Shown here one piece after another: positions 1 to 3,393 of a stretch of 3,393 nt of DNA. How positions within the stretch are numbered: the stretch's first letter is position 1; the number at the start of each line of letters is the position of its first letter. The notes beneath the pieces were generated by a model that was not told the DNA's origin, did not search any database, and saw only the letters and a list, made by a program, of their open reading frames with translations. The stretch is from Escherichia phage BZ13, in the sequence record FJ483838.1; one strand, given 5' to 3'. Position numbers and translations under genes: made by a program.

Positions 1-20
1 ATGCCGTTAGGTTTAGGTGA

Positions 21-38
21 CGGTATATCCATATACCG
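21..38 (+). promoter_or_regulatory. Perfect inverted repeat (cggtatat / atataccg) forming a 7-8 bp hairpin immediately 5' of, and overlapping the first G of, the maturation-gene Shine-Dalgarno sequence
   Basis: Positions 21..28 are the exact reverse complement of 31..38. A realistic fold is stem 21..27 with 32..38 and loop 28..31 (ucca). G38 is the first base of GGAGG at 38..42. Confidence 0.4.
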
Positions 39-42
39 GAGG
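38..42 (+). promoter_or_regulatory. Shine-Dalgarno sequence (GGAGG) for the maturation protein gene
   Basis: GGAGG at 38..42, 4 nt upstream of the ATG at 47..49. Confidence 0.6.
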
Positions 43-46
43 AGCT

Positions 47-1219
47 ATGTTTCCGAAACAGAATATCGATCGAACCTACAAGGTTACACTTATTTCTTAC
101 GACAAGAAGGGTAATGTCACTTCTGATGATTCTTTCGAATCGACAGAGAACTATCTCCTTCAAAATCGTTCGAATTCGTATAAACCTGGTTACGTTCGAA
201 AGGGATTCCGTAAACCGACAAACTTTTGGAATGGCTATCGCTATTTCAATCAGCCCGTCGGCGTCTTTACTCGGAAACTTGACAACGGTGGGAGACAAGT
301 CGCTGATTACGGTATCGTGAACCCTAATAAGTTCACTGCTAATAGTCAGCACTTGGGAGAGAACATGGTGATTTATCCAGGTCCTTTCTCGATCAATATT
401 GATAATAGAGCTAGTGTCGAAGTCCTTAATAAACTTTCTCAATCTAACCTCAATATTGGGGTTGCGATTGCAGAAGCTAAAATGACTGCTTCACTGCTTT
501 CTCGTCAATCGATCTCTCTCATCCGAGCCTACACTGCTGCAAAGCGCGGTAAGTGGCGGGAGGTGTTATCACAACTCCTTATCGCCGAACACCGTTTCAC
601 GAGACCCTCAAGGGATCTCGGAGGTCGATGGCTCGAACTGCAGTACGGTTGGTTACCTCTTATGAGTGATATCAAGGCTGGCTATGATCTGCTTACGCAG
701 ACTAAATTACCTGCTTTAATGCCTCTTAGAGTTACCCGCACCGTTGGCGGCACACACAATTATAAAGTGCGTAACGTCGAATCTGCAGGAGATACTTGGT
801 CATATAGCGATCGGCTCTCAGTGAATTACCGAATATGGTATTTCATCTCTGATCCCCGACTCGCATGGGCAAGTTCTCTAGGTCTCTTAAACCCATTAGA
901 AATTTATTGGGAAAAGACACCGTGGTCGTTCGTTGTTGACTGGTTTCTGCCCGTAGGAAATCTGATCGAAGCCATGAGTAACCCTCTTGGCTTAGACATC
1001 ATTTCTGGGACAAAGACCTGGCAACTCGAATCTAAATTGAACGCAACCATTAACGCATCAGGCTGGTCTGGGACAGCAAAGTTATCTGCATATGCGAAAG
1101 CGTATGACAGGTCTACTTTCTATTCCTTTCCAACGCCTATGCCTTACGTGAAATCCCCACTTAGTGGGCTTCACATGGCCAATGCGCTCGCATTAATTAA
1201 CCAACGCCTGAAAAGGTAA
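47..1219 (+). CDS. mat: Maturation (A / assembly) protein of an ssRNA levivirus, 390 aa
   Basis: Long ORF first in gene order, ending TAA at 1217..1219. Starting at the ATG at 47 gives exactly 390 aa, the size I recall for the GA A protein. The ORF track extends to a GTG at 17 (400 aa), but that codon has no SD while the ATG does. Position and size match the levivirus A protein. Confidence 0.85.
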
Positions 1220-1222
1220 ATC

Positions 1223-1226
1223 GGAG
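1223..1226 (+). promoter_or_regulatory. Shine-Dalgarno sequence (GGAG) for the coat gene
   Basis: GGAG at 1223..1226, 8 nt upstream of the ATG at 1235, inside the 15-nt A-coat intergenic spacer. Confidence 0.6.
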
Positions 1227-1234
1227 TTAGCCAC

Positions 1235-1627
1235 ATGGCAACTTTACGTAGTTTCGTACTCGTCGATAATGGCGGTACGGGGAATGTTACTGTCGTTCCT
1301 GTTAGCAATGCCAACGGCGTCGCTGAGTGGCTTTCTAATAACTCGCGCAGTCAAGCTTATCGCGTGACTGCCAGTTATCGTGCGTCAGGCGCGGACAAGC
1401 GCAAATACACCATCAAGCTGGAGGTACCGAAAATCGTTACCCAGACAGTTAATGGTGTTGAGCTGCCTGTTTCCGCATGGAAGGCTTACGCCTCCATTGA
1501 CCTGACCATCCCTATCTTTGCGGCGACCGACGACGTGACTCTTATTTCCAAGTCACTCGCTGGTCTCTTCAAGATTGGGAACCCGGTTGCTGATGCCATC
1601 TCTTCACAGAGTGGGTTCTACGCCTAA
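1235..1627 (+). CDS. cp: Major capsid (coat) protein, 130 codons; levivirus coat fold and RNA operator-binding protein
   Basis: The translation MATLRSFVLVDNGGTGNVTVVPVSNANGVAEW...LTIPIFA...GNP...SGFYA aligns along its whole length with the MS2 coat protein (MASNFTQFVLVDNGGTGDVTVAPSNFANGVAEW...LTIPIFA...GNP...SGIY) and matches the GA coat as I recall it. Length 130 aa, TAA stop at 1625..1627. Confidence 0.95.
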   Translation: MATLRSFVLVDNGGTGNVTVVPVSNANGVAEWLSNNSRSQAYRVTASYRASGADKRKYTIKLEVPKIVTQTVNGVELPVSAWKAYASIDLTIPIFAATDDVTLISKSLAGLFKIGNPVADAISSQSGFYA

Positions 1628-1634
1628 GGCGTAG
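1618..1634 (+). promoter_or_regulatory. Hairpin placing the coat UAA stop codon in its loop (cuacgcc-uaa-ggcguag), just upstream of the lysis start
   Basis: 1618..1624 (ctacgcc) is the reverse complement of 1628..1634 (ggcgtag). The 3-nt loop 1625..1627 is the coat stop TAA. Confidence 0.45.
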
Positions 1635-1644
1635 TTCTTCAGCA

Positions 1645-1839
1645 TTGGGTCAGAAAGCAATTAAACATAAGGAAAACCTATGTTCCGATTCACAGAGATC
1701 AAAAAGACTCTATGTATGGATCGCACTCGCGATTGTGCTGTCCGATTTCACGTCTATCTTCAGTCATTGGATTTGGGGTCTTCTGATCCTCATTCTCCAG
1801 ACTTTGATGGACTTGCCTACCTTCGTGACGAATGTTTAA
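1645..1839 (+). CDS. lys: Lysis protein (L-type single-gene lysis), 64 codons, in a third frame spanning the coat-replicase junction; start codon uncertain (apparent UUG)
   Basis: The frame is open from the TGA at 1591..1593 to the TAA at 1837..1839. It encodes a basic N-terminal region followed by a hydrophobic segment LYVWIALAIVLSDFTSIF..WIWGLLILIL that resembles the MS2 L protein segment LYVLIFLAIFLSKFT. It has the canonical levivirus L position, overlapping the replicase 5' end out of frame. There is no in-frame ATG or GTG; the first usable start is the TTG at 1645. Confidence 0.7.
   Translation: MGQKAIKHKENLCSDSQRSKRLYVWIALAIVLSDFTSIFSHWIWGLLILILQTLMDLPTFVTNV
1665..1683 (+). promoter_or_regulatory. 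Coat-protein translational operator hairpin containing the replicase SD and AUG (ACAUA-A-GG-AAAA-CC-UAUGU)
   Basis: Stem 1665..1669 pairs with 1679..1683, A1670 is unpaired, GG 1671..1672 pairs with CC 1677..1678, and the loop is AAAA 1673..1676. The replicase AUG is 1680..1682 and the SD AAGGA is 1669..1673. This is the same architecture as the MS2 operator (ACAUG-A-GG-AUUA-CC-CAUGU), with A at loop position -5 as reported for GA-type operators. Confidence 0.8.
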
Positions 1840-3278
1840 CTAAACATCCTTCACTTGGAGACAGTAATTCGGATGCACTCCGTAAGGAATTGGCATATGC
1901 CAAACTTATGGATAGTGATCAAAGATGCAAAATCCAAAACAGTAACGGATACGACCTGAGTCATATCGACTCTGGCGTACTTAACGGCATATTACTAACC
2001 GCTAAGGCTTCAATAGCGAAGTTACTTATGGGCTTTGAATCTCACTTCCTGAACGATTGTTCATTCTCCAATGGAGCCTCACAAGGGTTCAAGTTGCAGG
2101 ATGCAGCGCCGTTTAAGAAGATCGCTGGGCAAGCAACCGTTACAGCTCCTGCTTATGACCTAGCCGTGCACGCAGTTAAAACTTGCGGACCATGGCTTCG
2201 TTATATGCAGGAAACGTATGGCGATGAGACCAGATGGTTTCGTCGGGTATACGGAAACGGTTTGTTTTCTGTTCCGAAGAACAATAAAATAGATCGGGCT
2301 GCCTGTAAGGAGCCTGATATGAATATGTATCTTCAGAAAGGTGCTGGCTCTTTTATTAGACGCCGACTCCGATCTGTGAACATTGATCTTAACGATCAAA
2401 CACGCAATCAGGAATTGGCCCGACTTGGCAGCATTGATGGTTCGCTTGCTACTATTGATTTAAGTAGTGCTAGCGATTCCGTCTCTGATCGCCTCGTCTG
2501 GGATTTACTTCCGCCGCATGTTTATTCATATCTCCACCGTATCCGCTCATCTTTCACTATGATCGATGGGCAGTTACATAAGTGGAACCTATTTTCTACG
2601 ATGGGTAACGGTTTTACATTCGAGCTCGAGTCCATGATATTTTGGGCTCTGAGTAAGAGTGTAATGTCGTACCTCGGTGTTACTGGCTTACTTGGCATCT
2701 ATGGAGACGATATAATCGTCCCCACGAAATGCGCACCCCTTCTTCTACAGGTATTATCGGCTGTGAACTTTCTTCCTAACCAGAAGAAGACGTTTACTAC
2801 CGGTTATTTCCGTGAGAGTTGTGGGGCACATTTCTTTAAAGGTGCTTCAGTAAAACCTTTTTACTGCAAGCGGCCGATGGAAACCCTTCCCGATATTATG
2901 TTACTCTGTAACAGAATTCGTGGTTGGGGTACTATCGGGGGAATATCAGACCCTCGACTCTTTCCAATATGGAAGGAGTTTGCAGATATGATACCGCCTA
3001 AGTTTAAGGGTGGATGTAACCTTGATCGCGACACTTACCTTGTTTCACCGGATAAACCTGGTAAAACATTAGTTCGTGTTGCGAAGAAACGAAGTGGTTT
3101 TAACCATAAGTTTCGTAGTGACTATGAAAATGGTCGCTATATTCATTGGTTACATATGGGATCGGGCGAAGTGCTCGAAACTATATCTTCCGCCAGGTTT
3201 AGGTGCAAACCTAATTCGGAATGGAGGACACAGATCCCGCTATTTCCTCAGGAAATAGAGGCCTGCGTTCTCTCCTGA
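1680..3278 (+). CDS. rep: RNA-dependent RNA polymerase (replicase beta subunit), 532 aa
   Basis: Largest ORF and last in gene order. Contains RdRp motif A (IDLSSASDS, Asp codons at 2457..2459 and 2475..2477), a motif B-like region (SMGNGFTFELES) and motif C YGDD at 2700..2711. Size equals the GA replicase as I recall it. TGA stop at 3276..3278. Confidence 0.95.
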   Translation: MFRFTEIKKTLCMDRTRDCAVRFHVYLQSLDLGSSDPHSPDFDGLAYLRDECLTKHPSLGDSNSDALRKELAYAKLMDSDQRCKIQNSNGYDLSHIDSGVLNGILLTAKASIAKLLMGFESHFLNDCSFSNGASQGFKLQDAAPFKKIAGQATVTAPAYDLAVHAVKTCGPWLRYMQETYGDETRWFRRVYGNGLFSVPKNNKIDRAACKEPDMNMYLQKGAGSFIRRRLRSVNIDLNDQTRNQELARLGSIDGSLATIDLSSASDSVSDRLVWDLLPPHVYSYLHRIRSSFTMIDGQLHKWNLFSTMGNGFTFELESMIFWALSKSVMSYLGVTGLLGIYGDDIIVPTKCAPLLLQVLSAVNFLPNQKKTFTTGYFRESCGAHFFKGASVKPFYCKRPMETLPDIMLLCNRIRGWGTIGGISDPRLFPIWKEFADMIPPKFKGGCNLDRDTYLVSPDKPGKTLVRVAKKRSGFNHKFRSDYENGRYIHWLHMGSGEVLETISSARFRCKPNSEWRTQIPLFPQEIEACVLS

Positions 3279-3289
3279 TAGTATCAGGA
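3273..3289 (+). promoter_or_regulatory. Hairpin embedding the replicase UGA stop codon (ucctga-uagua-ucagga)
   Basis: 3273..3278 (tcctga) pairs with 3284..3289 (tcagga), with loop 3279..3283. Confidence 0.35.
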
Positions 3290-3344
3290 CCTCCCCGGAT
3301 GGGGTGGGTGGGACCGAAAGGTTCCTATGGAGGTGATATCCTCC

Positions 3345-3356
3345 CGCCGTAAGGCG
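3345..3356 (+). other. Small hairpin with a GNRA-type tetraloop (cgcc-GUAA-ggcg) in the 3' UTR
   Basis: CGCC 3345..3348 pairs with GGCG 3353..3356, loop GUAA 3349..3352. Confidence 0.35.
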
Positions 3357-3362
3357 TTTAAG

Positions 3363-3387
3363 GTGACTAGTTTGCTTGGCTAGTCAC
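3363..3387 (+). other. 3'-terminal hairpin (8 bp stem gugacuag / cuagucac, 9-nt loop) followed by the single-stranded CACCCA tail
   Basis: 3363..3370 is the exact reverse complement of 3380..3387. The loop is 3371..3379 (tttgcttgg) and the tail is 3388..3393. Confidence 0.6.
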
Positions 3388-3393
3388 CACCCA

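Follow-up and report, generated by a model that had tools for sequence, protein, structure and literature searches.

The N-terminal part of L-like lysis proteins is basic, and a hydrophobic segment and a conserved Leu-Ser dipeptide complete the motif, reportedly defined by Chamakura et al. Recombination is considered rare in natural leviviruses, and the ICTV sets the species threshold at a replicase amino acid identity of about 80%. The described phages closest to the sequence analysed here are KU1 and, at a greater distance, GA, DL10 and DL20, the records of which all carry Emesvirus japonicum as their taxonomy line. The lysis initiation codon of KU1 is UUG (PMC12856241), and the title of Groeneveld et al. 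(1996), cited in the same article, names an insertion in the lysis start codon; the KU1 Sgl has been placed among the L-like Sgls (PMC10229422). We analysed a stretch of 3,393 nt, referred to below as the window, which carries the same insertion and the same start codon, and compared it with these phages gene by gene.

Gene layout and genome identity

The plus strand of the window carries four ORFs, in the order maturation, coat, lysis and replicase, and each of the four encoded proteins exceeds the Pfam levivirus family cut-off of 25 bits. The ORFs and families thus bear out an earlier note, written from the letters of the window, which had described this canonical order, with an overlapping lysis gene, on a single strand. 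The genes and the untranslated regions that flank them are as follows.

1-46, plus strand: 3' part of the 5' UTR, from alignment to KU1, GA, DL10 and DL20
47-1219, plus strand: maturation (A) protein gene, 390 aa; Pfam Phage_mat-A, 3.6e-61; identical to ACT66721.1
1235-1627, plus strand: coat gene, 130 codons; Pfam Levi_coat, 1.2e-39; identical to ACT66722.1
1645-1839, plus strand: lysis gene, 64 codons, UUG start; Phage_MS2_lysis, 6.3e-07, 29.7 bits; identical to ACT66723.1
1680-3278, plus strand: replicase gene (RNA-dependent RNA polymerase, beta subunit), 532 aa; RNA_replicase_B, 2.3e-209; identical to ACT66724.1
3279-3393, plus strand: 3' UTR, multi-hairpin domain; MFE -56 kcal/mol, z -4.7

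The maturation ORF as listed extends upstream to a GTG at position 17, and its 390 residues are counted from the ATG; the MS2 maturation protein (5TC1_M) matches its product at 3.9e-74. The coat gene is preceded by GGAG at 1223-1226, and in GA capsid structures the coat protein has 129 residues once the Met is removed. Its product matches the GA capsid protein (1GAV, 5e-78) and coat chains of MS2 (approximately 4e-50), and is about 65% identical in amino acids to an MS2 coat sequence, in line with the alignability to MS2 coat that the earlier note had stated. The coat gene ends with UAA at 1625-1627, and the next in-frame stop, read by eye, lies only some 55-60 codons further; a lysis gene overlapping the replicase gene is present and a coat read-through (A1) protein is absent. 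The genus Emesvirus (Fiersviridae, formerly Leviviridae) is characterised by small plus-strand genomes of about 3.4-3.6 kb in which the maturation, coat and replicase genes follow one another on one strand, and the window agrees with this layout. The YGDD motif that the earlier note had reported in the replicase is located at residues 341-344 (nt 2700-2711), where the beta chain of Q-beta replicase has its own YGDD in the alignment (3MMP_G, 5e-65). The sizes of 390, 130 and 532 that it had given for GA are equal to those of the GA annotation.

A stop-free stretch of 163 codons on the minus strand (2-490), in register antisense to the maturation gene, was considered as an antisense gene. It is interrupted by stops in KU1, in the environmental genomes L005 and L006 and in others, and an open stretch of this kind was reached by 7 of 500 shuffles. 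The candidate was rejected as a gene and probably reflects chance or codon usage, consistent with the prediction that minus-strand ORFs would not be expressed.

All four proteins of the window are exact matches of ACT66721-ACT66724, which derive from a 3393-nt record of Escherichia phage BZ13. These accessions fall between those of DL10 (ACT66717-20, FJ483837) and DL20 (ACT66725-28, FJ483839). By protein identity, record length and accession order, the window is almost certainly (probability about 0.96) the deposited genome of BZ13 strain T72, FJ483838, an F-specific ssRNA coliphage of genogroup II (Fiersviridae, Emesvirus japonicum), written as plus-strand cDNA and about 90 nt short at its 5' terminus. 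FJ483838 is assigned in PMC3499819 to strain T72, a bird isolate from California. Taken by itself, the top searchable nucleotide match, at just 90.9%, would suit an undescribed, divergent group II levivirus, either a new strain or a new lineage. The 'phages' collection within which KU1 was ranked nearest contains FJ483837 (DL10) and FJ483839 (DL20) without FJ483838, which accounts for the low value of the best match, and the NCBI proteins reproduce all four products verbatim; a new lineage is accordingly very improbable, and the earlier note was right to call the window a known phage type rather than a novel system.

Written in DNA letters, and given that infectious levivirus cDNA clones exist, the window could also be read as a DNA locus, either an endogenised levivirus-like element or a plasmid-borne cloned cDNA. 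Vector or host flanks are absent, the sequence stops exactly at the viral 3' CCA terminus, and a search of E. coli chromosomes (5,426 genomes) and 72,556 plasmids returned no match to the window. The full-length nucleotide matches are RNA phages in every case, environmental RNA-derived assemblies contain relatives at 95-98% identity, and all relatives are RNA phage records or RNA-phage-like contigs of about 3.4 kb. A DNA locus is therefore extremely improbable, and the description of the window as the cDNA of a levivirus genome stands.

The T72 identification leaves the question of affiliation, which the earlier note had answered with 'GA-like', either GA itself or a divergent relative. Profile searches of coat and replicase and a similarity search against GA, KU1 and MS2, which it had proposed as checks, gave levivirus families (E-values listed above) and levivirus matches, respectively, with KU1 the closest searchable genome. 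The window is collinear with KU1 over its full length at 90.7-90.9% nucleotide identity, against 84-86% for GA, DL10 and DL20 (84.4-85.1% for GA alone), and the replicase is 95.9% identical in amino acids to that of KU1, 90-91% to those of DL10 and DL20 and 89.1% to that of GA, all above the species threshold. Codon differences to KU1 and GA are for the most part synonymous and in the third position; those in the maturation gene relative to KU1 comprise 112 synonymous and 32 non-synonymous changes. That the window could be GA or a trivial variant of it draws on the equal gene sizes and order and on the match of the coat to the GA capsid. GA is the more distant of the two phages by both nucleotide and replicase identity, and it is without the 18-nt insertion, the 3-nt insertion and the UUG lysis start described below; this interpretation is refuted by the alignments and retains practically no probability. 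Of the earlier description, the group II levivirus assignment is retained, and the GA label is replaced: judged by alignment, the window belongs to a KU1-like sublineage. The distinction is relevant to genotyping assays in which GA stands as the reference for group II. As the cDNA of a group II coliphage sequenced earlier, the window is otherwise an ordinary, already known object, and the finding matters little for a species that has been under study since the 1980s and a genome that is already deposited.

RNA elements and the coat-lysis junction

Three further elements were located by alignment and folding.

1618-1634, plus strand: perfect 7-bp hairpin CUACGCC-UAA-GGCGUAG, found by folding and as an inverted repeat, with the coat stop as its loop
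1628-1645, plus strand: 18-nt insertion, GGCGTAGTTCTTCAGCAT, from five- and eight-genome alignments; the same in KU1, absent from GA, DL10 and DL20
1664-1684, plus strand: translational operator hairpin (predicted coat-protein binding site), from its fold; encloses the replicase AUG at 1680-1682

The window starts at the equivalent of KU1 position 91 and GA position 90, and is therefore near-complete, with about 90 nt of the 5' UTR absent. As in MS2 and KU1, the missing stretch would span the 5' hairpin, the upstream complementary sequence and the greater part of the cloverleaf described for the 5' UTR (PMC4615214). An Rfam scan of the window found no 5' UTR family, as is expected from the truncated 5' end. 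The remaining 5' UTR has a predicted hairpin at 1-26 (1-9 paired with 18-26), which at z -0.76 is not significant alone, and a Shine-Dalgarno sequence, GGAGG, at 38-42, which corresponds to the rRNA binding site annotated in GA at 127-131. The operator hairpin, with a bulged A at 1670 and the loop AAAA, gave the sole match of the Rfam scan, to the MS2 operator hairpin RF02359 (18.8 bits, E 0.31, under the gathering score of 40). It corresponds to GA 1733-1753, annotated 'pot. binding site coat protein', and its sequence is identical in every genome compared.

At the other end of the window, the fold of the 3' UTR was equalled by none of 200 shuffles. Its terminal element is an 11-bp hairpin (3362-3388), and the 3' end reads ACCACCCA; the last ~35 nt of the window, ending in GTCACCACCCA, are identical in GA, KU1, DL10 and DL20, in agreement with the near-complete genome and CCA-type 3' end noted earlier. 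Across six genomes, 93% of the cells in the structure are paired, both-sided changes occur in only two pairs, and the covariation score was reached by 13 of 500 shuffles, too weak for proof; this support is thin because the compared sequences are close.

The 18-nt insertion divides the ancestral UAAUG stop/start overlap of the coat and lysis genes and provides the U with which the new UUG start begins. The KU1 annotation places the lysis CDS at an identical offset from the coat stop. An extra 3-nt insertion near 1660-1662 gives the lysis gene one codon more than in GA (Ile6), and the gene overlaps the replicase gene in the +1 frame. The encoded protein, MGQKAIKHKENLCSDSQRSKRLYVWIALAIVLSDFTSIFSHWIWGLLILILQTLMDLPTFVTNV, is rich in K and R at its N terminus and contains a hydrophobic core, with LS at residues 32-33; it thus has the features of the L-like (MS2 L type) proteins, and its lytic function is putative.

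The insertion begins with 7 nt that repeat the 3' end of the coat gene as its inverted complement and form the 3' arm of the 1618-1634 hairpin, which is unchanged in all eight insertion-bearing sequences examined. A second copy of the insertion, with up to three mismatches, was sought across the genome and none was found. Its last 10 nt together with TGGG match 1566-1579 at 12 of 14 positions, where roughly 0.1 chance matches are expected by a rough estimate; the resemblance, which is not significant, is suggestive of template switching as the origin of the insertion. Since no Shine-Dalgarno sequence precedes the lysis UUG in the window, we infer a termination-reinitiation mechanism for this gene: its translation would still depend on ribosomes terminating at the coat stop, which would open the hairpin and then reinitiate 18 nt downstream at the UUG. 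The insertion is shared by an environmental sublineage that includes T72, three Logan assemblies and three IMG/VR contigs. The KU1 insertion and the non-AUG lysis start therefore mark a whole environmental sublineage and are not the oddity of a single laboratory strain.

By analogy with MS2 and GA, for which these steps are established, the RNA would serve as both genome and mRNA, and the coat gene would be translated before the others. Following the levivirus model, coat dimers would bind the operator hairpin at 1664-1684, switching off replicase synthesis and nucleating packaging, and the replicase, with host factors, would initiate at the 3' CCA end. The maturation protein would bind the F pilus, and the small L-like membrane protein would cause lysis.

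Recombination signal within genogroup II

Identity to KU1 is uneven along the window, at 85.1% of nucleotides in the maturation gene and 93.4% in the replicase gene. The 5' 1450 nt, which cover the maturation gene and the greater part of the coat gene, group with the environmental lineage L007 and not with KU1, and the replicase part groups with KU1, each with a bootstrap of 100%. This mosaic recurs in L005, an environmental genome of independent origin at 96% identity, and in L010, an IMG/VR contig extending across the junction; it therefore did not arise as a chimera when the isolate was sequenced. An assembly chimera in L006 or L007 was considered as a source of the signal and rejected, as the signal remains in an isolates-only test. 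On these groupings, we lean towards the T72 lineage being a natural recombinant within genogroup II, in which the 5' ~1450 nt would come from an L007-related lineage and the 3' part from a KU1-related one, with a crossover near 1420-1535. As part of the same reading, the KU1-related portion would comprise the coat 3' end, the insertion, the lysis gene and the replicase gene. No report of recombination inside group II was found in the literature; in PMC3499819, recombination was tested in the JS strains only, and these were called the first natural recombinants in Leviviridae. The KU1-type sublineage thus carries a clear recombination signal.

Comparison with known phages

The window most resembles KU1 (AF227250, genogroup II), with which it shares equal gene lengths, the 64-codon lysis gene with its UUG start, the 52-nt coat-replicase spacer and the 18-nt insertion between coat stop and lysis start. 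Amino acid identity, given above for the replicase, is 98.5% for the coat and 91.8% for the maturation protein. The two genomes differ by a 3-nt shorter loop in one 3' UTR hairpin and by the absence of KU1 nt 1-90 from the window. With GA (X03869 / NC_001426), DL10 and DL20, the window shares the species-level group, the gene order, the sizes of maturation, coat and replicase products and an identical operator hairpin and 3' terminus, whereas in GA-type genomes the lysis gene, of 63 codons, starts at the AUG of the UAAUG stop/start overlap and the spacer measures 31 nt.

MS2 (Emesvirus zinderi, genogroup I) has the same four-gene architecture, operator hairpin type and L-like lysis family, but its genome is longer (3569 nt), megablast aligns only a 400-nt replicase core at about 75%, and its lysis gene begins within the coat gene. 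Q-beta (Qubevirus, formerly Allolevivirus) is homologous to the window in the replicase core, YGDD included, and in the C-terminal part of its maturation protein. It makes a coat read-through protein, A1, and has no separate lysis gene because A2 lyses the cell; in the window, by contrast, the coat gene stops at UAA and lysis has an ORF of its own.

Identity and gene content of the window

A megablast search of the window against 50,697 phage records, a comparison proposed in the earlier note, resulted in five full-length collinear matches, all of them genogroup II RNA coliphages: KU1 (90.9% nucleotide identity), the BZ13 strains DL10 (85.9%) and DL20 (85.6%), and GA (85.1%, two records). MS2-type genomes were alignable solely over a 400-nt replicase core, at approximately 75%. 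Searches of 5,426 complete E. coli genomes and 72,556 plasmids gave no match to the window, and the alternative of a DNA locus is therefore without support. An exact-sequence look-up returned the four encoded proteins verbatim from NCBI as ACT66721.1 to ACT66724.1 of Escherichia phage BZ13, encoded on a record of 3393 nt, as long as the window. In accession order these proteins are flanked by those of DL10 (ACT66717-20, FJ483837) and DL20 (ACT66725-28, FJ483839). The record in between, FJ483838, is described as strain T72, a genogroup II isolate of avian origin from Talbert Marsh, California (PMC3499819), and the window is almost certainly this deposited sequence.

Genes in the window (coordinates, strand, feature)
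47-1219, + strand: maturation protein gene, 390 aa counted from the ATG, with GGAGG at 38-42
1235-1627, + strand: coat protein gene, 130 codons
1645-1839, + strand: lysis ORF, 64 codons, with TTG as first codon
1680-3278, + strand: replicase gene, 532 aa, with YGDD at aa 341-344 (nt 2700-2711)

The order of the four plus-strand ORFs and the sizes of 390, 130, and 532 given in the earlier note are borne out by these coordinates. The suggested HMM search, run on the coat and replicase as well as the other two products, placed all four above the curated threshold of the respective Pfam levivirus family (Phage_mat-A, 3.6e-61, for the maturation product; Levi_coat, 1.2e-39, for the coat; Phage_MS2_lysis, 6.3e-07, for the lysis product; RNA_replicase_B, 2.3e-209, for the replicase). 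Among solved structures, the coat protein matched the GA capsid (1GAV, 5e-78) and, as had been proposed, the MS2 coat chains (approximately 4e-50), the maturation protein matched that of MS2 (3.9e-74), and the replicase matched the Q-beta beta subunit (5e-65), with the expected YGDD motif aligned to its counterpart. The window closes with ...GTCACCACCCA, in agreement with the 3' end described from the sequence.

Nucleotide 1 corresponds to KU1 position 91 and GA position 90, such that about 90 nt of the 5' terminus are absent. In MS2 and KU1, the timing of maturation-gene translation is set by a cloverleaf, most of which lies in this region together with the 5' hairpin and the upstream complementary sequence (PMC4615214). 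Nucleotides 1-84 of DL20 (FJ483839) match the group I-JS strain DL52 (JQ966307), from the same sequencing laboratory, at 100% identity and the MS2 5' end at 97.6%, and are dissimilar to the GA and KU1 5' ends; this stretch is either an artefact of priming or contamination or a 5' terminus that arose by recombination between groups.

The operator hairpin (1664-1684) surrounds the replicase AUG and is unchanged across all compared genomes; it scores 18.8 bits with the Rfam MS2-operator model, under the 40-bit threshold, and the homologous hairpin of GA is annotated as a putative coat-binding site. The fold of the 3' UTR is a compact domain of several hairpins (-56 kcal/mol, z -4.7), mostly kept across group II, with changes on both sides in only two pairs. 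On the minus strand, 163 codons without a stop (2-490) lie antisense to the maturation gene, share its register, and run off the 5' end of the window, a length reached in 7 of 500 shuffles. An antisense gene at this position was rejected as unconserved; because stops break the counterparts in KU1, DL10, DL20, and the Logan assemblies L005 and L006, the stretch probably reflects chance or codon usage.

The insertion at the lysis start

In GA, DL10, and DL20, the coat stop overlaps the lysis start as UAAUG, whereas the window shares with KU1 an identical 18-nt insertion, GGCGTAGTTCTTCAGCAT (1628-1645). The insertion splits the start codon between the A and the UG, which yields a UUG start 18 nt past the coat stop, and another 3 inserted nt lengthen the lysis gene by one codon. 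Groeneveld, Oudot and van Duin 1996 (cited in PMC12856241) name the KU1 insertion in their title, and the KU1 initiation codon is cited as UUG (PMC12856241). The insertion opens with 7 nt exactly complementary to the 7 nt of the coat ORF that precede its stop, and the two form a 7-bp hairpin (1618-1634) with the UAA coat stop as its loop. Termination-reinitiation coupling is known from levivirus lysis genes. A UUG with no Shine-Dalgarno sequence upstream points to such reinitiation here, in which ribosomes would end at the coat stop and then reinitiate downstream at the lysis start.

The insertion appears to be composite, since next to the 5' inverted complement its 3' part resembles an upstream stretch: the last 10 nt and the following TGGG (1636-1649) agree at 12 of 14 positions with TCTTCAAGATTGGG (1566-1579), which lies 70 nt upstream, a resemblance near chance expectation. 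This composite make-up is statistically marginal but hints at template switching or copy-back by the replicase as the origin. No second copy of the 18 nt was found in the genome.

All three near-full-length Logan assemblies carry the insertion (L005, SRR12978838, 96.3% identity to the window; L006, ERR13717228, 89.2%; L007, SRR9899372, 90.6%), as do all three IMG/VR contigs (L008-L010; UViGs 3300019216, 3300019231, and 3300019247; 95-98%). The KU1-type insertion is thus a marker of a widespread sublineage and not the peculiarity of one laboratory strain. T72-like sequences at 95-98% identity (L005 and L008-L010) recur in independent environmental data sets, so that circulation of the T72 lineage in nature is not confined to the one isolate from a bird; T72-like reads were prominent in wastewater after chlorine and UV treatment (PMC6963950). 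At the homologue of window positions 1645-1647, L007 has CTG (CUG) where the window and KU1 have TTG (CAGCACTGGG versus CAGCATTGGG). This CTG may be a highly unusual start codon, stem from an error in sequencing or assembly, or belong to a variant defective in lysis.

A mosaic signal within genogroup II

Identity between the window and KU1 is uneven, at 75-92% over positions 1-1500 and 91-99% over 1500-2700. In a test using isolates only, with GA, DL10, and DL20 as outgroup, derived sites shared by the window and KU1 were compared with sites unique to either, giving 77 shared and 55+72 unique over positions 1-1500 and 141 shared and 29+37 unique over 1501-3393 (chi-square 38, p 5e-9). In the quartet of window, KU1, L007, and GA, the window sided with L007 at 44 sites and with KU1 at 24 to the left of about 1423-1498, and at 13 and 48 sites, respectively, to the right (maximum chi-square 24.6, reached by none of 2000 permutations); L007, like L006, is a short-read assembly in which chimerism is possible. 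NJ trees on K2P distances, a simple method applied here to genomes with fairly strong saturation at synonymous sites from one sublineage to another, grouped the window, L005, and L007 (bootstrap 100%) and KU1 with L006 (99%) over positions 1-1450, and the window, L005, and KU1 (100%) over 1500-3278.

This phylogenetic incongruence, which concerns loci L001 and L005-L007 within the KU1-like sublineage, suggests natural recombination inside group II with a breakpoint at about 1420-1535. As the simplest single event, the T72/L005 lineage is likely the recombinant; the relations among KU1, L006, and L007 are then consistent in both halves, with one relevant node at only 69%. A primer-walking chimera in the isolate is argued against because L005 and the junction-spanning L010 carry the mosaic too. 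In PMC3499819, the analysis of recombination covered the JS strains only, which were called the first natural recombinants of the family. The signal within group II is the sole modestly new element here, a side observation beside the main finding.

Relation to KU1 and GA

Nucleotide identity of the window by region, from an alignment of five genomes
Maturation gene: KU1 85.1%, GA 81.4%
Coat gene: KU1 93.9%, GA 91.6%
Replicase gene: KU1 93.4%, GA 85.7%
3' UTR: KU1 92.4%, GA 80.7%

Protein identities to KU1 are 91.8% (maturation), 98.5% (coat), 95.9% (replicase), and 95.3% (lysis), and those to GA are 89.7%, 94.6%, 89.1%, and 93.7%, respectively. Codon differences to both phages are largely synonymous third-position changes (against KU1, the maturation gene has 112 synonymous and 32 non-synonymous differences), as is the expectation for functional genes. 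The description of the window as GA-like holds at the level of the species, Emesvirus japonicum, but not at that of the sublineage, where KU1 is closer overall. The window is an already known, deposited genome, almost certainly that of BZ13 strain T72, and within genogroup II of Emesvirus japonicum it belongs to the KU1-like sublineage.
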